A stretch of 64,000 bases of DNA, from the NCBI GenBank assembly GCA_041659365.1, contig JBAZYH010000001.1:37590-101589 (forward strand), given 5' to 3'. Source of the DNA: Minisyncoccota bacterium (GTDB lineage Bacteria; Patescibacteriota; Minisyncoccia; Phycocordibacterales; GWA1-40-21). Position numbers and translations under genes: made by a program. Within the stretch, counting starts at the first letter, position 1, and every line of letters begins with the position of its first letter. The notes beneath the pieces were generated by a model. That model was given only the letters and a program-made list of their open reading frames with translations, ran no database searches and was not told the origin of the DNA. This document shows positions 6,377 through 63,106 of the stretch, in pieces.

Positions 6377-7975
6377 TTACTTTTGTTTCTTATTTAATAC
6401 TCTCTTTAAGTATTTTCCTGTGAAGCTCTTCCCATTCATCGCAATATCTTCAGGAGTACCTTTTGCTATAATTTGTCCACCTTTATCTCCACCTTCTGGA
6501 CCAATATCTATAACATAATCAGCAGATTTTATGAGATCCATATTGTGTTCAATAACCATTACTGTATTTCCATTGTCTACAAGCTTTTGTAAAATCTCTA
6601 TAAGTTTTTTTACATCTTCATAATGAAGACCGATAGTTGGTTCGTCCAAGAAATAAATCGTCTTATACATTCCTGGTCTGTAAAGTTCTGAGGAAATTTT
6701 TACTCTTTGTGCCTCTCCACCCGAAAGGGTTGTTGCAGACTGTCCAAGCTTCAAATATCCAAGACCAACGTCATTTAGACATTTTATTCTATCGTAAACA
6801 TTGGGTATATCTAAAAAGAAATCCTGCGCCTCTTCTACAGTCATATCAAGTACTTGATGAACATTTTTTCCTTTATATTTTACTTCCAAAGTTTCTTTCA
6901 TAAATCTTTTTCCATTACAAATATCACAAGGTACATAAACCGTAGGAAGAAAATGCATTTCAACTTCTATGTTTCCATTACCTTCACAAGTTTCGCAACG
7001 CCCACCTTTTACGTTAAAAGAAAATCTATTTGCCTTCCATCCCCTTTCACGAGCCATCACAGTTGAAGCAAAAAGCTCACGAATAAATGTCCAACATCCA
7101 GTATATGTCGCCGGGTTTGAACGAGGAGTTCTACCTATTGGAGACTGATCTATCATTACAGTTCTGCTTATATATTCTGAACCAGTAAATGACGCGCAGT
7201 TATGAGTCTCCGTTGATCTCATTTTTCTCTCAAGTCTTGCCTGAAGATTTTTATATAATATTTCATATATAAAAGAAGATTTTCCAGAACCAGAAACTCC
7301 AGTGACACAAACAAGTTTACCTAGAGGAACATCAATATCCATATTTTTAATATTAAATATCTTTCCCCCTCTTATTTTTAATTTTCCTTTATCTTGATCC
7401 CTTCTTTTTTCTGGAATCTCTATTCTATCTTCTCCACGCAAATAACTAAGAGTAAGTGATCCACTTTCATTTTTCTTTGCTGTTAAAAGTTCGTCGAGAT
7501 ATCCAGTGACGACAACTTCTCCACCATGGACCCCAGCACCAGGACCAATATCTACGATAAAATCGGAAGCATACATGGTATCTTCGTCATGTTCCACAAC
7601 AATAATAGTATTACCTAAATCTCTAAGATCTGTAAGCGTTTTTATGAGTTTGTCATTATCTCTCTGGTGTAGTCCTATGGTTGGTTCATCGAGCACATAA
7701 AGCGCACCTACGAGCCCAGAGCCGAGCTGGGAGGCAAGACGGATCCTTTGAGCCTCTCCTCCAGAAAGTGTGTTTGCTCTTCTATTTAATGATAAATATT
7801 CTATACCAACATTGGTCATAAACAAAAGTCTAGAATCTATCTCTTTCAAAATAACATTCGATATTTCTTTTTCTGTTTCAGTAAGTTTTACTTCATTAAT
7901 AAAAGTTTTTGCATCTGTAATAGATTTTGCAACGTAGTCTACAATATTTAGACCATTTATAAGTATATGAAGTGC
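6377..7975 (-). CDS. uvrA: excinuclease ABC subunit A (UvrA), C-terminal segment, in frame with the upstream segment
   Basis: The same frame continues straight after the TAA: ALHILINGLNIVDYVAKSITDAKTFINEVKLTETEKEISNVILKEIDSRLLFMTNVGIEYLSL, then LSGGEAQRIRLASQLGSGLVG, the second ABC domain and LSGGEAQRVKI. The first Met of the track ORF is at 7849. Confidence 0.85.
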   Translation of the reverse strand, partial: ALHILINGLNIVDYVAKSITDAKTFINEVKLTETEKEISNVILKEIDSRLLFMTNVGIEYLSLNRRANTLSGGEAQRIRLASQLGSGLVGALYVLDEPTIGLHQRDNDKLIKTLTDLRDLGNTIIVVEHDEDTMYASDFIVDIGPGAGVHGGEVVVTGYLDELLTAKKNESGSLTLSYLRGEDRIEIPEKRRDQDKGKLKIRGGKIFNIKNMDIDVPLGKLVCVTGVSGSGKSSFIYEILYKNLQARLERKMRSTETHNCASFTGSEYISRTVMIDQSPIGRTPRSNPATYTGCWTFIRELFASTVMARERGWKANRFSFNVKGGRCETCEGNGNIEVEMHFLPTVYVPCDICNGKRFMKETLEVKYKGKNVHQVLDMTVEEAQDFFLDIPNVYDRIKCLNDVGLGYLKLGQSATTLSGGEAQRVKISSELYRPGMYKTIYFLDEPTIGLHYEDVKKLIEILQKLVDNGNTVMVIEHNMDLIKSADYVIDIGPEGGDKGGQIIAKGTPEDIAMNGKSFTGKYLKRVLNKKQK

Positions 7976-8986
7976 TTATTCTCTAAGTCTCGCACCCTTA
8001 CACTTTTCACAATCTTCATCAGAGAAAAAATCTTTTGTTCCAAGACCATTACACTCACTACATGCTCCATAGGGTGAGTTAAAAGAAAAAAGTCTAGGCT
8101 CTATCTCAGGATAAGAATATCCATCATAAGGGCACATGAATTTTACAGAAATCATTTTCTCTTCTTCAGGAGTTTCTATCTTAAGTAAACCTTTTGACTC
8201 ATCTATAGCTTTTTCTACAGCATCAGATAAACGCTCCTTAATAGCATCTTTTTTATCCTTAAACTCACTTATATAAAATTCATCGACAAGAACGTCTATG
8301 TCGTGTTTTTTATTTTTTGAAAGAATTATTTGATCCCTAAGCTTTTTAAGTTGACCATCTATTTTTACTGATTCATATCCTTTTTCAAGTAAATCATAAA
8401 GAAGCTGATAATATTCTCCTTTTCTTCCCACAACTACAGGTGAAAAAATTTTTATTTTATCACTTACAACTTCTACTCCAAGAATTTCCCTAGAATTCTT
8501 TGGTGCTTTAATTGCATAAACTGTATGAAAAATTGTTTCTAAGATTTCTTCCTTTGAAAGCTTCTTTATTTCTCTTCCACAAACCAAACAATGTGGTCTA
8601 CCAATTCTTGCAAAAAGAATTCTAAGATAATCATAAATTTCTGTAATAGTAGCTACTGTGGAACGAGGGTTATTTGAACGAGATTTTTGATCTATAGAAA
8701 TAGCTGGTGAAAGACCAATGATTTCATCCACATCCGGCTTCTGCATCTGATGTAAGAATTGTCTTGCATATGAAGAAAGTGACTCTATATATCTACGCTG
8801 GCCTTCCGCAAAAATAGTATCAAAAGCAAAAGATGACTTCCCTGAACCGGAAAGGCCTGTAACTGCTATCATCTTATTTCGAGGCATCTCAACTGTGATA
8901 TTCTTAAGATTATGAGTTCTAGCACCCCTTACAATAATCTTGTCAGAATTATGATTTACATCTGTTTTTGTTTTTTTTGTATTCAT
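7976..8986 (-). CDS. uvrA: excinuclease ABC subunit A (UvrA), N-terminal segment ending at an in-frame TAA
   Basis: UvrA N-terminus with Walker A ([25 protein letters not shown]) and zinc-finger region ([32 protein letters not shown]). Stop TAA at 7976-7978. Confidence 0.85.
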
Positions 8987-9550: not shown

Positions 9551-9570
9551 AAATAAAAACTTTAAAAAAT

Positions 9571-9665
9571 AATTATAATTTACACATATCAGCTATAGCT
9601 GATATGTGTAAATTATAATTATTTTAATACAAGAAGACGACTCGCAAAGCGAGTCGTCTTCTTGT
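9571..9665. terminator. bidirectional terminator region between convergent genes: 50-bp perfect palindrome plus a second perfect hairpin
   Basis: aattataatttacacatatcagctatagctgatatgtgtaaattataatt (9571-9620) and acaagaagacgactcgcaaagcgagtcgtcttcttgt (9629-9665), flanked by A/T runs. Confidence 0.55.
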
Positions 9666-10098: not shown

Positions 10099-10809
10099 TT
10101 ATTCAAGTAGTAACAATATTGTAACCGTTGTCCCTTCATTTAGAGTTGAATCTATTTTAATACTACCACCATTCATTTCAAGTATTTTTCTTGTAGTATA
10201 AAGACCAATTCCACTTTTTCCAGGTTTCATTTCTATAGTATTTTCACCCTTAATAAATCCATCAAAAATATTTTTTAATCTTTCTGGGGAAATACCGACA
10301 CCTGTATCTTTTACAATTAGTCTTAAACTACTACTAATTTTATCAACAGAGATAATAACCTTACCGTTTGGCGAATATCTAAGTGCGTTGTCTACAACGT
10401 TTATAATAGCAAGTTCTATCGTCTCCATATCAGCAAAGGCGGTGGCCTCAGTACATCTATTATACTCAACTATATTATTTTTTTCTTGAACTAAATATTT
10501 TAAATTTTTTAAGACATTATCTATCAATAAACATAGATTAAATCTCTCTTTTTTAAAATCAAGCTTTTTACTGTCTTTAAAAAGATTTAATACTTCCTCT
10601 GTAATATTTATAGACTCCAAAACTTTATTATAAGACTCTTTTACTAATTGAATATCTCCGTCCTTTTTTTCTGAAATAATTGACTCAAGTAGCCACCTTG
10701 CACCATTTAATGGAGTACGAAGTCTATGAACAAGAGCCATAATTAATGTTTTATCAAAACTACACATCCTTAGATCTTCTTCCTTTTCCTTTCTCTTAAA
10801 AAAATTCAT
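10099..10809 (-). CDS. sensor histidine kinase (soluble; HisKA + HATPase_c)
   Basis: H-box LVHRLRTPLNGARW, N-box NVVDNALRYS, G-boxes KDTGVGISPERL and GKSGIGLY. Overlaps or abuts the receiver gene, so a two-component operon. Confidence 0.8.
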   Translation of the reverse strand: MNFFKRKEKEEDLRMCSFDKTLIMALVHRLRTPLNGARWLLESIISEKKDGDIQLVKESYNKVLESINITEEVLNLFKDSKKLDFKKERFNLCLLIDNVLKNLKYLVQEKNNIVEYNRCTEATAFADMETIELAIINVVDNALRYSPNGKVIISVDKISSSLRLIVKDTGVGISPERLKNIFDGFIKGENTIEMKPGKSGIGLYTTRKILEMNGGSIKIDSTLNEGTTVTILLLLE

Positions 10810-10860: not shown

Positions 10861-10982
10861 AACCTGGATTGCTTCGCTTCGCTCGCAAAGACACAAATTA
10901 TTAATAATGAAAAAACAGATTTCATTTTGTGAAATCTGTTTTTATTATATGTCTTTGCGAGCGAAGCGAAGCAATCCAGGTT
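10861..10982. repeat. composite palindromic element: 33-bp inverted arms (aacctggattgcttcgcttcgctcgcaaagaca) flanking a terminator-like hairpin
   Basis: Arms at 10861-10893 and 10950-10982 are perfect reverse complements. Core: aaaaaacagatttcattttgtgaaatctgttttt. The same architecture recurs at 24442-24553. Confidence 0.6.
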
Positions 10983-10999
10983 GATTTTATTAAAATTTT

Positions 11000-13063
11000 T
11001 TATTTCTTCCTTTTAATAGTTTTGACCTTTGGAGTCATTACCTTTATTTTTTCTTTCAACAATAAAATTTCGTCTCGAAGAATAGAAGCGGACTCGAAAT
11101 CTAATATTTTTACAGCGGCATTCATCTGTATTTCTTTCTGTCGAATAAGCTTTTCTGGATTTTTAACAGAGGATACCTCATCTATTCTCAAAAGCTCCTG
11201 CACGGCTTTATCATGATCACTTCTCAAATGTTCAGTAATATCTTTTATAGCCTTAATTATAGTCCTTGGAGTTATGCCATTTTTTTTATTATAGGCTATC
11301 TGTATATCTCTTCTTCTATTTGTTTCTTCTAAAGCTCTTTCTATAGAACCTGTGATTCTATCTGCATAAAGAACAACCCGTCCAGCTACGTTTCTGGCTG
11401 CACGTCCTATTGTCTGTATAAGTGAGGTATCCGAACGCAAAAATCCTTCTTTATCAGCATCAAGTATTCCTATAAACTCTACTTCTGGAAGATCAAGACC
11501 CTCTCTGAGCAAGTTTACTCCTACAAGACAGTCAAACTTCCCTCTTCTAAAACTTGTAAGAATTTCTATTCTGTCTATAGTTTTTATTTCACTATGTAAA
11601 TATTCTGCTTTAACACCTTTTTCTTTTAAATATTCACTAAGATCTTCTGCCATCTTTTTAGTAAGTGTTGTAGCAATAACTCTTCCGCCTCCTTTTATAA
11701 CTTTTAATGATTCATCTATAAAATCAAAAACTTGAGATTTATTTTTATTCTTCACTTCAGTAATCGGCCTTATTTCTACAACAGGATCAATAAGTCCAGT
11801 AGGCCTAATAACCTGCTCAACTATTTGTTCAGAATTTTCTCTCTCGTAATCTCCTGGAGTTGCTGAAGTAAAAATAACTTGATTTATTCTCTCCTCAAAT
11901 TCATCAAACTTTAGTGGTCTATTGTCCTTTGCAGATGGAAGCCTAAAACCATAATCTATAAGAGTTTTCTTTCTTGAAGCATCTCCCGCATACATACCAC
12001 GAATCTGAGAGACAGCTACGTGTGATTCATCTATAACAGTAAGAAAATCTGGAGTACCATCTTCTTTTTTAGGAAAATATTCAAGCAGACTGTCTGGAGC
12101 TTCTCCTGGATTTTTACCAGAAAAATGTCTGGAATAATTTTCTATACCATTACAATAACCAACCTCTTTTATTAAAGCGAGATCATAAGTAGTTCTCCTT
12201 CGAAGTCTTTCTGCTTCAAGATTTTTACCTTCCTTTTTCAAATCTTCGAGTTGTTTTTCCAACTCCGCTTTTATACTTTTGAAGGCTCTTTCTTGTTGTT
12301 CCTTATCTGTAATAAAATGTTTTGCAGGAAAGATAAAAATCGATTGTATATTATCTTCAACAATATTTCTTGAAACAGAATCTATTCTGGTAATAGCTGA
12401 GACTTCGTCATTCTCAATATCTATCCTTATAATAATCTTTTCGTTTACTGGCATTACTTCAATAGAATTACTTACTGCTCTAAATGTTCCAGATTTGATA
12501 TCAGAATTTGTTCTTTCAAAGTAAACACTTATAAGCTTCCTTACTAAATCTTGTCTTGAATAACTATCTCCTATTTTTAGTTTAAGATTAACTTTTTCAT
12601 ATTCCTTTGGACTTCCTAAACCATATATACAAGAAACTGATGCGACAATTATCACATCTTTCCTTGTAAGAAGTGCCTGAGTAGAAGCATGACGAAGTCG
12701 ATCAATTTCCTCATTTATCATTGCCTCTTTTTCTATATAAGTATCTGTAACAGGCATATAAGCCTCTGGCTGATAATAGTCATAATAAGAGACAAAATAA
12801 TGTACAGCATTATCAGGGAAGAATTCTTTATATTCTTGAGCAAGCTGAGCCGCAAGGGTTTTATTGTGAGCTATTACAAGAGTTGGTTTCTGTATTTGCT
12901 GGATAACATTTGCAACTGTAAAAGTTTTTCCAGAGCCAGTAACACCAAAAAGGGTTTGTTTTTTAAACCCCTTTTTAATCCCTTCAACTAGCTGTTCAAT
13001 TGCATTTGGCTGGTCACCAGCGGGAGCATAATCAGCTCGAATTTTAAACTTATTTTGTGACAT
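11000..13063 (-). CDS. uvrB: excinuclease ABC subunit B (UvrB)
   Basis: ADYAPAGDQPNAIEQLVEGI, Walker A GVTGSGKTFTVANVI, helicase motifs, C-terminal UVR domain. The track ORF starts at 13084, but the likely start is the Met at 13063 (MSQNKFKIRADY), because the upstream codons fall inside the repeat element. Confidence 0.9.
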   Translation of the reverse strand: MSQNKFKIRADYAPAGDQPNAIEQLVEGIKKGFKKQTLFGVTGSGKTFTVANVIQQIQKPTLVIAHNKTLAAQLAQEYKEFFPDNAVHYFVSYYDYYQPEAYMPVTDTYIEKEAMINEEIDRLRHASTQALLTRKDVIIVASVSCIYGLGSPKEYEKVNLKLKIGDSYSRQDLVRKLISVYFERTNSDIKSGTFRAVSNSIEVMPVNEKIIIRIDIENDEVSAITRIDSVSRNIVEDNIQSIFIFPAKHFITDKEQQERAFKSIKAELEKQLEDLKKEGKNLEAERLRRRTTYDLALIKEVGYCNGIENYSRHFSGKNPGEAPDSLLEYFPKKEDGTPDFLTVIDESHVAVSQIRGMYAGDASRKKTLIDYGFRLPSAKDNRPLKFDEFEERINQVIFTSATPGDYERENSEQIVEQVIRPTGLIDPVVEIRPITEVKNKNKSQVFDFIDESLKVIKGGGRVIATTLTKKMAEDLSEYLKEKGVKAEYLHSEIKTIDRIEILTSFRRGKFDCLVGVNLLREGLDLPEVEFIGILDADKEGFLRSDTSLIQTIGRAARNVAGRVVLYADRITGSIERALEETNRRRDIQIAYNKKNGITPRTIIKAIKDITEHLRSDHDKAVQELLRIDEVSSVKNPEKLIRQKEIQMNAAVKILDFESASILRDEILLLKEKIKVMTPKVKTIKRKK

Positions 13064-13078
13064 AATTTTGTTTTTGTG

Positions 13079-13154
13079 TGTCATTCCCGTGAAGACGGTA
13101 ATCCATGAATATTATATTTCTGTCATTGCGAGGTAGTCCGTCGCAATCCAGGTT
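13079..13154. repeat. two short palindromic repeat elements (TGTCATT-hairpin-AATCC family)
   Basis: tgtcattcccgtgaagacggtaatccatg (13079-13107) and tgtcattgcgaggtagtccgtcgcaatccaggtt (13121-13154). Confidence 0.6.
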
Positions 13155-13592: not shown

Positions 13593-13654
13593 TCTTTTTT
13601 ACAGCATTTTGACAAAGGTTTTCAAGGACGGAACAATCATCCCTACTTGAAAAT

Positions 13655-13690
13655 CAAAAACCGCGTGCACGACACACGCGGTTTTCTTAT
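13655..13690 (+). terminator. intrinsic terminator (copy 1 of an identical pair)
   Basis: ccgcgtg-cacgaca-cacgcgg stem-loop plus T-run. An identical 36-bp sequence sits at 14204-14239. Confidence 0.6.
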
Positions 13691-14182: not shown

Positions 14183-14257
14183 GGCCCAAAACCTTAGGTT
14201 AATCAAAAACCGCGTGCACGACACACGCGGTTTTCTTCTGTCACTTAAGCGACAAAA

Positions 14258-14725: not shown

Positions 14726-14885
14726 ACGACTCTCCTTTTTGAATGAACAAGCGTATTAGTTGATGAATACACGATACATCCTTATTTCCAGTTTTACCTA
14801 GAAACGACCCAACCATACAGTCAGGAATTAATTCATTTTTATATTATATATAATATGTAGTAATGTCAATTTTTAGGATTATAAA

Positions 14886-14921
14886 TTTTACACATATACG
14901 CCATGGCGTATATGTGTAAAA
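14886..14921. repeat. perfect palindrome TTTTACACATATACGCCATGGCGTATATGTGTAAAA (copy 1 of 3)
   Basis: Perfect inverted repeat centred on CCATGG, flanked by T- and A-runs. It lies downstream of the tgt stop, so it is probably a bidirectional terminator. Confidence 0.6.
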
Positions 14922-14940
14922 TTAATTTATTAAAATACTT

Positions 14941-15066
14941 AACCTGGATTGCGACGTCAGAATACTTCCTCGCAATGACAGAAGGGGAATTTTGCGAAGC
15001 AAAATTCCCCTCTCTCCTATTTATTTTCTTTTTGTCATTGCGAGTTACTACGTCGCAATCCAGGTT
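14941..15066. repeat. two short palindromic repeat elements in opposite orientation, plus a central hairpin
   Basis: aacctggattgcgacgtcagaatacttcctcgcaatgaca (14941-14980); ggggaattttgcgaagcaaaattcccc hairpin (14984-15010); tgtcattgcgagttactacgtcgcaatccaggtt (15043-15066). Confidence 0.55.
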
Positions 15067-15076
15067 AATTTTTATT

Positions 15077-16378
15077 TTATTTAAGATATTTACTTAAAAA
15101 TTCTTTTCTAAATTTATCAAAATTATTATCTAGTATACTCTGACGGATTTTTTTAACTAGATTAACAATAAAATAGATATTATGTATTGAAGCTAGTGTT
15201 CCACCAAGCATTTCTTTACCATGGAAAAGATGACACAAATAAGCTCTAGAATAATTCTTACATGTATAACACGCGCAATCATCTTCAACGGGTTTTATAT
15301 CTATTCTAAACTCGTTATTCATTATATGAATCTTCCCTGTCTTAGTGTAAATAGTTCCGTTTCTTCCAAGCCTTGTTGGTAATACACAATCAAAAAGATC
15401 TATACCATTTTCGATTCCCATAAATAAATCTTCTGGTTCACCAATACCCAAAAGGTGTCTTGGTTTTTCTTCTGGAAGTATCTCATTTACCCATTTTACA
15501 GCAGTAGACATATCTTCTTTAGCGAAAGAACCACCTATTCCAAAACCATCAAACTTTTCTCCATCTATCTCCATTTCTGAAATTACTTTTGCAGATTTCT
15601 TTCTTAAATTTTCATCTCTACCACCTTGGATAATTCCGAATAATGCTGGGCCAAAAAAATCCTGGATTCCCGCCTCCGCGAGAATGACAGATTCGGTTTT
15701 TGTTTCTTTCAACTTTTCACTTTGAACTTTTAACTTGAGATGTTCTTCCAGACAGCGCTTTGCCCAAGAATGAGTCCTCTCAAGTGCCTCCTCTTGATAC
15801 TTCAAATCTTCGGATGGTGAAGTACACTCATCAAAAGCAAATATCATATCTGCACCTAAGTTATGTTGTATCTGTATAGATCTCTCAGGAGTAATATAGT
15901 GAACAGAACCATCTATATGAGATGTAAAAGAAACTCCATCCTGTCCTATCTTTGCCAGCCTTGGAGCATTTGAATCATCAAATCTTTCAGGAATCAAAAG
16001 AGATGGATTAGTTATTTGTATAACTTTTGATATTTCTTTTCCATAAGCAGCACCAAGAGAAAAAACTTGAAAACCACCAGAATCAGTCATACTCGGTCCG
16101 TGCCAGTTCATCATTTTATTTAAACCACCCATTTTCTTCACAGATTCATCTCCAGGCTGAAGATATAAGTGATATGTATTTGCAAGGACTACTTGAGCTC
16201 CAGTATCTCTCACCTGCTCAGGATTGACCGATTTTACTGTCCCCTTAGTCCCAACCACCACAAAAGCAGGGGTTTCTATTATCCCGTGAGCTGTTTCTAT
16301 AGTTCCTGCTCTTCCAAGCTTTCCTTCAAGCTTTTTTTCTATTTTAAAATTAATAGCTTTCACTTGGTTAATATACAT
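15077..16378 (-). CDS. tgt: queuine tRNA-ribosyltransferase
   Basis: GRAGTIETAHGIIETPAFVVVGTKG, VLANTYHLYLQPG, zinc site CACYTCKNYSRAYLCHL. The track ORF runs to 16477, but that extension overlaps a repeat element, so the Met at 16376-16378 (MYINQVKAINF) is the likely start. Confidence 0.85.
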   Translation of the reverse strand: MYINQVKAINFKIEKKLEGKLGRAGTIETAHGIIETPAFVVVGTKGTVKSVNPEQVRDTGAQVVLANTYHLYLQPGDESVKKMGGLNKMMNWHGPSMTDSGGFQVFSLGAAYGKEISKVIQITNPSLLIPERFDDSNAPRLAKIGQDGVSFTSHIDGSVHYITPERSIQIQHNLGADMIFAFDECTSPSEDLKYQEEALERTHSWAKRCLEEHLKLKVQSEKLKETKTESVILAEAGIQDFFGPALFGIIQGGRDENLRKKSAKVISEMEIDGEKFDGFGIGGSFAKEDMSTAVKWVNEILPEEKPRHLLGIGEPEDLFMGIENGIDLFDCVLPTRLGRNGTIYTKTGKIHIMNNEFRIDIKPVEDDCACYTCKNYSRAYLCHLFHGKEMLGGTLASIHNIYFIVNLVKKIRQSILDNNFDKFRKEFLSKYLK

Positions 16379-18461: not shown

Positions 18462-18633
18462 TGTCATTCCCGTACAGACGAGAATCTAGTATTAATCAAT
18501 ACAACCTGGATTCCCTTTTTCAAGAGAATGACAATACAAAAAACTAATTAACCTGGATTGCTTCGTTCCTCGCAAAGACAATACTCATACAAATACTAAT
18601 ACTGGATTCCCGCCTACGCGGGAACGACAATAC
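18462..18633. repeat. cluster of four short palindromic repeat elements (TGTCATT...AATCC family), 9-16 bp apart
   Basis: tgtcattcccgtacagacgagaatctagtatt; aacctggattccctttttcaagagaatgacaatac; aacctggattgcttcgttcctcgcaaagacaatac; actggattcccgcctacgcgggaacgacaatac. Confidence 0.6.
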
Positions 18634-18640
18634 AAAAAAC

Positions 18641-18677
18641 GAGGAGACACCTTTTTGAGGATTTAAGGTCTCACCTC
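18641..18677. repeat. conserved imperfect hairpin element GAGGAGACACC-loop-GGTCTCACCTC (copy a), flanked by A- and T-runs
   Basis: caaaaaacGAGGAGACACCtttttgaggatttaaGGTCTCACCTCgtttttt. Other copies at 25861-25897, 30035-30071 and 30629-30665; partial copy at 46805-46828. Confidence 0.6.
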
Positions 18678-18735
18678 GTTTTTTGTTATTTTCCGCGTAA
18701 GGTCAGCGTGGTTCCGCGTCTTGTCCGCGATAGAT

Positions 18736-24336: not shown

Positions 24337-24441
24337 AAAGAGTTAAAAGTTTGTAAAGTTCATAAAGCCTGCCCCGTAGCTAACTTTTTCCTTCAAAAAA
24401 GTTATGGTACTGGGGTAAAAAGTTAATAAAATACAAACGTT

Positions 24442-24615
24442 CTAGATTGCTTCGCTTTGCTCGCAAAGACACACAAAAAAAATAACACAAAGAGGTTTTT
24501 GCAAAGCAAAAACCTCTTTGTGTCTTTGCGAGCAAAGCGAAGCAATCCAGGTTTGTATTTATTTTTTTGTTGTCATTCCCATGCAGACAGCCTGCCCGCC
24601 TTAGGAGGGGGAATC
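24442..24615. repeat. composite palindromic element (inverted 30-bp arms around a 37-bp hairpin) plus one more short palindromic element
   Basis: ctagattgcttcgctttgctcgcaaagaca / cacaaagaggtttttgcaaagcaaaaacctctttgtg / tgtctttgcgagcaaagcgaagcaatccaggtt; then tgtcattcccatgcagacagcctgcccgccttaggagggggaatc (24571-24615). Sits between convergent genes. Confidence 0.6.
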
Positions 24616-25825: not shown

Positions 25826-25860
25826 ATCCTTATTATACTCATTTTAATGAAATAAAAAAT

Positions 25861-25897
25861 GAGGAGACGCCTTTTTTAATTCTCAAGGCCTCACCTC
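25861..25897. repeat. conserved imperfect hairpin element (copy b) with compensatory change
   Basis: GAGGAGACGCCttttttaattctcaaGGCCTCACCTC; A>G on the left arm is matched by T>C on the right arm, compared with the other copies. Confidence 0.6.
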
Positions 25898-25971
25898 ATT
25901 TTTTAAATTATAAAAATATTTATCAATACTTTATAAACTTTAAACTTTTTACTTTTAACTACTTCAGTTAA

Positions 25972-29923: not shown

Positions 29924-30034
29924 AATAAAATTATATCAAAATCTATTTAATAATGATACTTTAATTTATTTTATAAATACCACTTTGTCTTTACGAGTAG
30001 AAAAAAATAATCCAGATTTAATAAAACAAAAATC

Positions 30035-30071
30035 GAGGAGACACCTTTTTGAAGATTTAAGGTCTCACCTC
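30035..30071. repeat. conserved imperfect hairpin element (copy c)
   Basis: aaaaatcGAGGAGACACCtttttgaagatttaaGGTCTCACCTCaattttt; downstream of the RRM gene stop region. Confidence 0.6.
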
Positions 30072-30131
30072 AATTTTTGTTTAAAAAAAAACACACTTTC
30101 GTGTGTTTTTTTAAAAAACTCTAAGATAATA

Positions 30132-34774: not shown

Positions 34775-34858
34775 CTGGATTGCTTCGGGATTGCCCTCGC
34801 AAAGACGAACTCGATACCCTGAAAGGAACTCTGGATTCCCGTCTTCACGGGAATGACA
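34775..34858. repeat. two short palindromic repeat elements between rpoC stop and downstream gene
   Basis: ctggattgcttcgggattgccctcgcaaagacg (34775-34807); ctggattcccgtcttcacgggaatgaca (34831-34858). Confidence 0.55.
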
Positions 34859-42117: not shown

Positions 42118-42374
42118 GGCTCGCTCGCAGAACTTTTCTAAAGCACGATATAAATTTTTTCGTCAAAAAATTTATTCTCTACTCAGGTAATTTTTTGCTA
42201 AAAATTACCTTCCGTAAGGCTTTTAAAAAGCTCAGCTTCGCTCGCTATTGTGAATTCAATATCCTTGTGAGGTGAGTATTTTTAGTATTGTATTTGTATT
42301 GTCATTCCTGCGTAGGCAGGAATCCAGTATTATCGTATTTGTGTCATTACGAGCAAGGCGTAGTAATCCAGGTT
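42118..42374. repeat. repeat-rich leader upstream of rpoB: about 120-bp repeat (copy of 16431-16551) followed by two short palindromic elements
   Basis: ggctcgctcgcagaacttttctaaagcacgatataaa...ttccgtaaggcttttaaaaagctcagcttcgctcgc (42118-42246); ttgtcattcctgcgtaggcaggaatccagtatt (42299-42331); tgtcattacgagcaaggcgtagtaatccaggtt (42342-42374). Confidence 0.55.
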
Positions 42375-42981: not shown

Positions 42982-43020
42982 GTCATTGCGAGAAGGTAAT
43001 CCGACGTCGCAATCCAGGTT
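42982..43020. repeat. short palindromic repeat element
   Basis: gtcattgcgagaaggtaatccgacgtcgcaatccaggtt. Confidence 0.55.
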
Positions 43021-43646: not shown

Positions 43647-43717
43647 TGTCATTGCGAGGTAGTCCGTCGCAATCCAGGTTTTATAAATTCTGGATTCCCG
43701 TCTACACGGGAATGACA
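43647..43717. repeat. two short palindromic repeat elements
   Basis: tgtcattgcgaggtagtccgtcgcaatccaggtt (43647-43680; identical to 13121-13154); ctggattcccgtctacacgggaatgaca (43690-43717). Confidence 0.6.
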
Positions 43718-44877: not shown

Positions 44878-44956
44878 GTGTCATCCTCGCGTATGCGGGG
44901 ATCCAGTATTTGAATTATTTTAAAAATCCTGGATTCCCGTCTGCACGGGAATGACA
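44878..44956. repeat. two short palindromic repeat elements
   Basis: tgtgtcatcctcgcgtatgcggggatccagtatt (44878-44910); cctggattcccgtctgcacgggaatgaca (44928-44956). Confidence 0.55.
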
Positions 44957-57840: not shown

Positions 57841-57855
57841 TTTAATATTATATAC

Positions 57856-57893
57856 TTTTTACACATATACGCCATGGCGTATATGTGTAAAAA
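57856..57893. repeat. 34-bp perfect palindrome (copy 3) immediately upstream of the Cas2-like ORF
   Basis: tttttacacatatacgccatggcgtatatgtgtaaaaa. Confidence 0.6.
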
Positions 57894-57954
57894 GTAATAA
57901 ATTATTTTTTTAAATAATACTTTTATATTATTATTGTTGTGTTAGTATAGATAT

Positions 57955-63073: not shown

Positions 63074-63106
63074 TGTCATTGCGAGCATAGCGTCGCAATC
63101 CAGGTT
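63074..63106. repeat. short palindromic repeat element 9 nt upstream of the ABC ATPase start codon
   Basis: tgtcattgcgagcatagcgtcgcaatccaggtt. Confidence 0.6.

Follow-up and report, generated by a model that had tools for sequence, protein, structure and literature searches.

The window analysed here, a stretch of chromosomal DNA of 64,000 nucleotides with 32% G+C, carries the genes uvrA/B/C, tgt, a clpB-like gene, rpoB/C, dnaG and rpoD. At 10861-10982, next to the 3' end of uvrB, two inverted arms enclose a hairpin core. The question raised by this composite is whether it is a MITE, as the original prediction proposed, or an arrangement of another kind. Our analysis shows that it is a real, non-random and known kind of repeat arrangement and almost certainly not an IS-derived MITE. 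The reading that we favour, with a probability of about 0.6, is a head-to-head dimer of REP units which brackets a terminator-like hairpin just past gene stop codons. REP stands for repetitive extragenic palindrome, a short hairpin that recurs in the DNA between genes.

The Composite Next to uvrB

The features of this locus, named copy 1 below, are as follows.

10099-10809, minus strand: histidine-kinase gene, downstream of copy 1
10861-10893, minus strand: left arm, a type-A unit TGTC-TTTGC-GAGCGAAGCGAA-GCAAT-CCAGGTT, exact match to the 33-mer
10911-10943, unstranded: core, a 14-bp stem AAAAACAGATTTCA / TGAAATCTGTTTTT within the 56-nt spacer 10894-10949
10950-10982, plus strand: right arm, a type-A REP unit, 17 nt from the uvrB stop codon (11000-11002)
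11000-13063, minus strand: uvrB, its 3' end adjoining copy 1; identified by Pfam and by 100% identity with a 687-aa UvrB from Candidatus Paceibacterota

The 33-mer TGTCTTTGCGAGCGAAGCGAAGCAATCCAGGTT is found at 10950-10982 on the plus strand and at 10861-10893 on the minus strand with 0 mismatches, and no such match appeared in 100 shuffles. This confirmed the exact 33-bp inverted arms of the original prediction (33/33 identity). The core had been described as a terminator-like hairpin, and this also held: its 14-bp stem stands between an A-run and a T-run and was flagged on both strands. The linkers that join the arms to the core are 16 and 6 nt long and are not complementary. Folded as RNA, copy 1 reached -79.8 kcal/mol (z = -16.1 versus shuffles). 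A promoter-like box, TGTGATATAAT (TGnTATAAT-like), lies between copy 1 and the start codon of the histidine-kinase gene.

Three Composites with Unrelated Cores

A second copy with the same arms around a different core had been placed at 24442-24553. It was found there with one arm mismatch and an 18-bp core stem. A lack of further copies had been named as a point against the prediction; a third composite of the same design, overlooked at first, is present at 14941-15066.

24442-24473, minus strand: copy 2 left arm, outer end degenerate (CTAGATT instead of CTGGATT, without AACC)
24485-24523, unstranded: copy 2 core hairpin, ACACAAAGAGGTTTTTGC-aaa-GCAAAAACCTCTTTGTGT, 18-bp stem, overlapping the right arm by 3 nt
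24521-24553, plus strand: copy 2 right arm, one mismatch to the copy 1 arm
14941-14980, minus strand: copy 3 left arm, GTCATTGCGAG-GAAGTATTCTGACGTC-GCAATCCAGGTT on that strand
14984-15010, unstranded: copy 3 core hairpin, GGGGAATTTTGC-GAA-GCAAAATTCCCC
15033-15066, plus strand: copy 3 right arm, with a loop TTACTACGTC unlike that of the left arm, which makes this copy a heterodimer

The arms of copy 2, taken as 24442-24473 and 24519-24550, are 32 nt each and 97% complementary, and both carry the identical G-to-A variant. The core of this copy is terminator-like on the minus strand, and its RNA fold has an energy of -78.8 kcal/mol (z = -16.6 versus shuffles). The fold of copy 3 reaches -70.7 kcal/mol (z = -12); the terminator scan did not flag its core, and its right arm ends ~10 nt from the tgt stop codon (15077-15079).

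All three composites are head-to-head pairs with spacers of 51-58 nt, and each spacer contains a hairpin; the tag end of one unit is 0-6 nt away from this hairpin, that of the other unit 14-22 nt. Neither the cores nor the spacers show mutual homology, nor can they be aligned. The earlier description of inverted arms around a variable hairpin core is thus borne out by three composites with unrelated cores. The sequence scan found the features of an intrinsic terminator, a G+C-containing hairpin and a T-run, in cores 1 and 2, and by their sequence the cores look like resident terminators. Against the favoured reading, the T-run stands on the correct strand for the upstream gene in copy 1 only.

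The Arms Belong to a Family of Hairpin Units

The arms had been assigned to a family of short palindromic elements, and the assignment stands: the ~30-nt hairpin repeat to which they belong, (C/T)GTC-ATTGC...GCAAT-CCAG, occurs about 25 times in the window. The sequence CCTGGATTGC, with at most one mismatch, occurs 17 times in the window versus 1.5 expected. A regex census of the window gave 23 units of two types, with degenerate ones additional to these. Type A follows the pattern GTC[A/T]TTGCGAG-N-GCAATCCAG(GTT), and type B follows GTCATTCCCG-N-CGGGAATCCAG. Nearly all units of the window are intergenic, between co-directional or convergent genes, and they are arranged as singletons, tail-to-tail pairs, one four-unit cluster and the three head-to-head type-A pairs. 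Those outside the composites include the following.

13080-13151, plus strand: solo units, type B at 13080-13106 and type A at 13122-13151
15662-15688, minus strand: type-B unit in frame inside tgt, encoding VILAEAGIQ
18463-18628, unstranded: BIME-like cluster of four units (B+, B-, A-, B-)
18463-18532: tail-to-tail pair in this cluster
34775-34857, minus strand: A and B units downstream of rpoC
42301-42371, plus strand: B and A units
42982-43017, plus strand: half-composite, a solo type-A unit located 13 nt past a terminator hairpin
43648-43716, unstranded: tail-to-tail A/B pair
44880-44955, unstranded: tail-to-tail B/B pair
63075-63103, plus strand: solo type-A unit

Copy 2 is adjoined by a type-B-like unit with a long insert at 24565-24615 (TTGTCATTCCCATGCAGACAGCCTGCCCGCCTTAGGAGGGGGAATCTAT), and a further hairpin lies on its other side at 24371-24417. 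The tag ends of many units (18506, 18602, 42301, 43690, 63075) abut TTTGTATT-like sequence, and the unit at 18506-18532 has TTGTATT on both sides. The occurrence of TTTGTATT ahead of the unit heads may be a target preference or a coincidence; as it is lineage-specific and coincides with the T-tails of terminators, it is given here as an observation only.

The design of type A is constant across 420 units: GTC, the outer stem ATTGC, GAG, an insert, CG(A/T/C)(A/G), GCAAT and C. The variable insert measures 7-45 nt in these units and usually forms a hairpin of its own. The most frequent of all versions is the minimal GCGAG-CGAAGCGAA-GCAATC, the sequence of the arm studied here. For the covariation analysis, 47 distinct units of equal length were aligned. 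The inner helix covaries, with 21 cells changed on both sides versus 3.9 in shuffles, a score that was reached by 0 of 500 shuffles. The pairing of this helix is 84%, versus 20-56% in slid controls. In the 47 distinct units, which come from many phyla, GTC is preceded by C or T and rarely by G. Most units have ATTGC/GCAAT followed by CCAG, while the arm subtype has a T.T at position 1 (TTTGC/GCAAT). Taken alone, this subtype (GTCTTTGC...) forms a weak hairpin with an outer stem of 4-5 bp. The stem-loop of type B is ATTCCCGT-GAAG-ACGGGAAT.

The inner loops are mostly G-N-A closed by C-G. Such loops are typical of very stable DNA mini-hairpins of the d(GCGAAGC) type, and because of this resemblance they would, by analogy, point to a hairpin formed at the DNA level. 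Four parts make up each unit: the unpaired tag (C/T)GTC, the outer stem ATTGC/GCAAT, a small internal loop around a variable inner hairpin, and a CCA(G) tail.

Orthologous Sites in Relatives

Five related contigs (L001-L005) were recovered via UvrB homologues. L004 and L005 are close sisters, with UvrB 98% identical. The window UvrB is ~92% identical to those of L001, L002, L004 and L005 alike; the histidine-kinase identities, 77-78% to L004/L005 versus 63-67% to L001/L002, place the window beside the L004/L005 pair.

The gap between uvrB and the kinase gene is 23 nt in L001 and 50 nt in L002, with neither arms nor a hairpin. In L005 it holds a plain terminator, AAATACAAAAAGGATTTTTGC-TTT-GCGAAAATCCTTTTTGTATTT, without arms. 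In L004 it holds the same composite as copy 1, with a core ~90% similar. Two double changes distinguish this orthologue from the window copy: both arms have G in the window versus A in L004, and a pair of the core stem is C-G in the window versus T-A in L004. These changes indicate that pairing has been maintained in both the arm and the core helices, and the window and L004 form a clean orthologue pair in which compensatory changes have kept a long palindrome paired. At the clpB/DUF5698 site of L004, only a different plain terminator is present.

The element is absent from orthologous sites in some relatives, namely L001, L002 and L005 at uvrB and L004 at clpB. Ordinary terminators without arms in relatives had been named as a finding that would speak against the prediction; L005 has one at uvrB, but its hairpin differs from core 1. 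The composite is dispensable. The four-unit cluster at 18463-18628, which lies downstream of a SIMPL gene, is orthologous in L004 and L005 with one member replaced. Since the terminator at the clpB site differs and a cluster member was replaced, 3' intergenic regions turn over quickly.

At the uvrB site, the core 1 hairpin is absent wherever the arms are absent, and no core 1 without arms was seen, which counts against the favoured reading. Meanwhile, hairpins of the core 2 type (GAGGTTTTYGC-NNN-GCRAAAACCTC, with ATACAAA / TTTGTAT flanks) occur as plain terminators elsewhere in the relatives (L002 3036-3066, L004 7775-7805), and downstream of tgt in L001 such a hairpin has one unit attached.

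The in-frame type-B unit of tgt is also present at L004 8513-8539, the peptide being S/F-VI-L/S-A-E/K-AG-I/V-Q. It lies in a hypervariable loop common to the window and L004 and not found in L001, L002 or L005. The loop groups L004 with the window although L004 is otherwise the sister of L005, and the sequences thus suggest recombination. A type-B unit is also seen at the annotated 5' end of uvrB at L002 6890-6916 and L003 416-442. Because the gene call with this unit is 741 aa versus ~690 aa elsewhere, the unit was probably absorbed into an over-extended uvrB ORF in L002 and L003.

Occurrence beyond This Genome

The head-to-head pattern CTCGCAAWGAC-N35-65-GTCWTTGCGAG was found at no fewer than 120 loci in species-representative genomes of many phyla. 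The matches listed include Alpha-, Beta- and Gammaproteobacteria, Desulfobacterota-type organisms, Bacteroidota, Chloroflexota and Planctomycetota, as well as Nitrospinota, Clostridia, a spirochaete (Treponema), Helicobacter, Rickettsiales and Patescibacteria. The exact 29-mer of the arm occurs at at least 120 metagenome-contig loci with a GC content of 0.32-0.70; among the matches listed, it is seen in unrelated genomes and in diverse contexts, also inside genes. The 26-mer core of the arm, GTCWTTGCGAGCRAAGCGAAGCAATC (A or T at the fourth base), is present in 117 stretches of IMG/VR viral contigs (L246-L362). Unit density differs about sevenfold between close Paceibacterota relatives.

A head-to-head partner within 120 nt accompanies 25 of the 136 exact-arm occurrences among the metagenome matches listed, and the other 111 have none. 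Since this is the extent of head-to-head pairing, the composite is a dimer of units. The original prediction had taken the small elements for solo ends of a larger unit; the direction is the reverse, and the ~30-nt unit is the basic entity. Half-composites, consisting of a hairpin and one unit, were found at the tgt terminator of L001, at window position 42982 and in L157. In a set of GC-rich metagenome contigs (L159, L176, L190, L163, L188), one heterodimer recurs with different flanks while part of its spacer (GGACTTT...) is conserved, and tandem arrays are also present among them.

Rfam searches of the sequence at gathering thresholds returned tRNA only; at permissive thresholds they returned, besides, only generic long-hairpin (miRNA-precursor) models, all below the cut-offs. 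A literature search with GTCATTGCGAG-type sequence strings gave primer matches only, and the RepRanger and Coxiella MITE papers contained no matching sequences.

Relation to Known Repeat Families

The closest known repeats are those of the CGTC-tagged REP superfamily (Di Nocera, De Gregorio & Rocco 2013, BMC Genomics 14:522; PMC3733652). The superfamily includes the dRS3-type units of Neisseria and the short RPEs of Rickettsia, and its members have an unpaired CGTC tag (TGTC in many), A-T at stem positions 1-2 and a CCA tail. Head-to-head dimers predominate, and their spacers of 20-100 bp include stem-loops in some cases; they are homodimers and heterodimers, the latter being common. Copies lie downstream of genes and also in frame within genes, DNA-repair genes included, and no associated or dedicated transposase is described. 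Families 1-4 have stems of 8-9 bp and loops of 4-5 nt (Table 1), and the authors allow that bulged variants may have escaped detection.

The units described here are alike in the TGTC tag of the arms, the A-T stem start of most units and the CCA(G) tail. They are also alike in the head-to-head dimers with structured spacers, both homodimeric and heterodimeric, and in the positions downstream of genes with an in-frame intragenic copy. No transposase linked to the units was seen in the window or the sampled loci. Type-B units fit the 8-9-bp stem and the 4-5-nt loop, and their peptide VILAEAGI resembles the published CGTC-1 peptide VIPAKAGI. In contrast, the outer stem of type A, GTC-[A/T]TTGC-GAG-variable hairpin-CGWR-GCAAT-CC, is 5 bp long and is accompanied by an internal loop and a 7-45-nt insert, and the five phyla named in the paper do not include Patescibacteria/CPR. 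None of the typical type-A peptides is present in its supplementary list of intragenic copies. Since the stem and loop metrics differ and the type-A peptides are missing from that list, the arm type may be a bulged family not catalogued in PMC3733652, a comparison made by text metrics and not by consensus sequences. The weak hairpin formed by the arm subtype alone, which does not fit the 8-9-bp stem and the 4-5-nt loop, also counts against the favoured reading.

The window units resemble the BIMEs of E. coli in forming clusters of alternating orientation in 3' intergenic regions. They differ in unit sequence and in the absence of the BIME linker motifs and of the IHF and gyrase sites. The Correia/NEMIS, RUP and ERIC MITEs are likewise intergenic palindromes of ~100-150 bp that fold as RNA hairpins. 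However, they are conserved internally, whereas here the arms alone are common to the copies, and in Correia and RUP target duplications are found as well, together with termini like those of insertion sequences.

Target-Site Duplications and the Search for a Transposase

In a classical MITE, the composite would be a deletion derivative of an IS with a DDE transposase, and its 33-bp arms would be TIRs mobilised by cut-and-paste in trans. A length of ~120 bp, terminal inverted repeats, several copies and the absence from some orthologous sites agree with such an origin. However, the flanking direct repeats are 3-4 nt long versus a median of 4 at 2000 random positions, with a slack of +/-8 nt allowed in the test, so that target-site duplications do not exceed chance. 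Pfam detected no transposase in any window ORF of at least 150 aa or in several shorter ones. An element with the same arms that carries a transposase was sought in the window and in ~2.6 Mb of fetched loci, and none was found; between long-range inverted identical units in these ~2.6 Mb, only FadL, AraC, malonyl-CoA decarboxylase and MFS genes were seen. The internal sequences of the three composites are not homologous, and the arms are independently folding REP units, mostly singletons and spread over many phyla among the matches listed. The MITE proposed in the original prediction is largely refuted by these results, and we regard it as extremely improbable.

The only RAYT-like gene seen is located at L004 9319-9981 (220 aa), between tgt and uvrB. 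It matches Pfam Y1_Tnp with E = 6e-9 and falls below the cut-off of NCBIfam REP_Tyr_transpos. Within L004 9270-9995 it is bracketed by inverted copies of the hairpin GATAGAG-N7-CTCTATC, the upstream one being GTAG-tagged, and a third copy lies in frame within the gene. A RAYT interrupted and flanked by its own hairpin in this way is a subclass-2.4-like trait (PMC6006769). This hairpin is absent from the window, and a tblastn search with the RAYT of L004 gave no match in the window or in ~1 Mb of sampled loci.

The presence of this gene in a relative agrees with a REPIN-type origin, in which the whole dimer would be mobile as a single-stranded DNA hairpin moved by a single-copy RAYT encoded elsewhere in the genome. 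In REPINs the tag is GTAG, the spacers of different copies are homologous, and the same REPs flank the cognate RAYT (Bertels & Rainey 2011, PMC3116915). The composites share with them the architecture of two inverted REPs and a spacer that form one long hairpin, the coexistence of singletons and doublets, and the lack of target-site duplications, as expected of Y1 (tyrosine, RAYT-type) transposition. The variable presence among relatives, the tandem arrays and the recurrence of one heterodimer with a partly conserved spacer at different GC-rich loci speak for the same origin. Nevertheless, the tag here is TGTC or CGTC, the three window spacers are unrelated, and singletons dominate among the matches listed. 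The RAYT of L004 is bracketed and interrupted by its own GTAG-tagged hairpin, not by these units, and a RAYT accompanied by these units was not seen in the window or the sampled loci. In PMC3733652, no transposase is tied to CGTC REPs. We consider that movement of the whole dimer is unlikely.

Origin of the Composites

In the favoured reading of a REP dimer around a terminator-like hairpin, units would have been inserted on each side of resident terminator hairpins with their tag ends facing the hairpin. As a palindromic target is the same on both strands, the insertions would come to be inverted. Stepwise addition of units is favoured because plain terminators of the core 2 type and half-composites exist. 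The units may spread via single-stranded DNA hairpins, by analogy with GTAG REPs and the RAYT tyrosine transposases, and the identity of the arms could then be kept by intra-palindrome template switching, gene conversion or selection for pairing. A 33/33 identity, however, is equally expected from a single duplication or from transposition of the whole unit, which weakens this reading.

One such duplication would be a fold-back event, in which a single unit beside a terminator was copied across by intramolecular template switching and the composite itself never moved. The identical arms of copy 1, the private variant common to both arms of copy 2, the half-composites and the concerted double changes between the window and L004 are all consistent with it. 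However, the symmetry breaks between the arms and the core, where the linkers of copy 1 differ in length and are not complementary, and the arms of copy 3 have different loops. Heterodimers are, moreover, common in the CGTC class according to PMC3733652. We therefore find it rather improbable that the composites arose in this manner.

Possible Function and Significance

Roles reported for REP and BIME sequences are termination and the stability of mRNA 3' ends. On the basis of these roles, the position after stop codons and the terminator-like cores, the composite is probably a reinforced terminator or an RNA 3'-end structure. Copy 1 is predicted to terminate uvrB transcription, probably also to shield the RNA 3' end, and probably to separate uvrB from the kinase operon, which keeps its own TGnTATAAT-like box downstream. 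When transcribed, the composite would terminate transcription in both directions or form a hairpin that protects the 3' end, so that uvrB would be insulated from the operon downstream.

A function of this kind could also be the whole explanation, that is, a host-selected regulatory structure such as an extended terminator or a protein-binding palindrome, with arms conserved by function and no mobile history. The location directly after stop codons, the terminator-like cores and the compensatory changes that preserve pairing fit this explanation. On the other hand, close relatives manage without the composite at the same sites, cluster membership turns over between relatives, and the same 29-mer occurs in unrelated genomes in varied contexts, including inside genes. 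A purely host-selected origin is thus very doubtful.

The REP dimers described here extend CGTC-type REPs and their head-to-head dimers to reduced candidate-phyla-radiation genomes, a new host phylum. One short sequence is strongly conserved across phyla without a known enzyme that moves it, a question that has stood since 2013. The type-A unit might be a still-active mobile hairpin present throughout bacteria, and its dimers around terminators would then be a self-spreading 'portable terminator' moved by a conserved non-RAYT enzyme. This idea agrees with the exact 26-29-mers common to genomes of 32-70% GC and to viral contigs, with an inner stem that is hypervariable and with the G-N-A loops; we put it forward as speculative and quite unlikely. 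If it were true, Paceibacterota genomes of ~1000 genes would offer a very small search space for the enzyme.

Other Repeats and Gene Oddities Nearby

On the minus strand at 7849-7990, uvrA is split into the ORFs 7976-8986 and 6377-7849 by an in-frame TAA (...GCGAGACTTAGAGAATAAGCACTTCAT...), while the UvrA of the relatives is a single protein of 867-879 aa. A nonsense mutation, recoding or an error of the assembly could account for the split.

Perfect or near-perfect palindromes built on TTTACACATAT-N-ATATGTGTAAA occur at 9566-9625, 14881-14926 and 57853-57896 (60, 46 and 44 bp). They constitute a repeat family of their own, which may represent operators or divergent-promoter sites. Near-identical terminator hairpins, CGAGGAGACACCTT-N11-AAGGTCTCACCTCG, are found in the window at 18632-18686, 25841-25917 and 30017-30089 and in L004 at ~296-345, and they recur in relatives. 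An exact 37-nt direct repeat, AATCAAAAACCGCGTGCACGACACACGCGGTTTTCTT, which is a terminator-like hairpin, is present at 13652-13688 and 14201-14237, 549 nt apart. It lies within the variable uvrB-tgt intergenic hotspot, where the relatives have different small genes.
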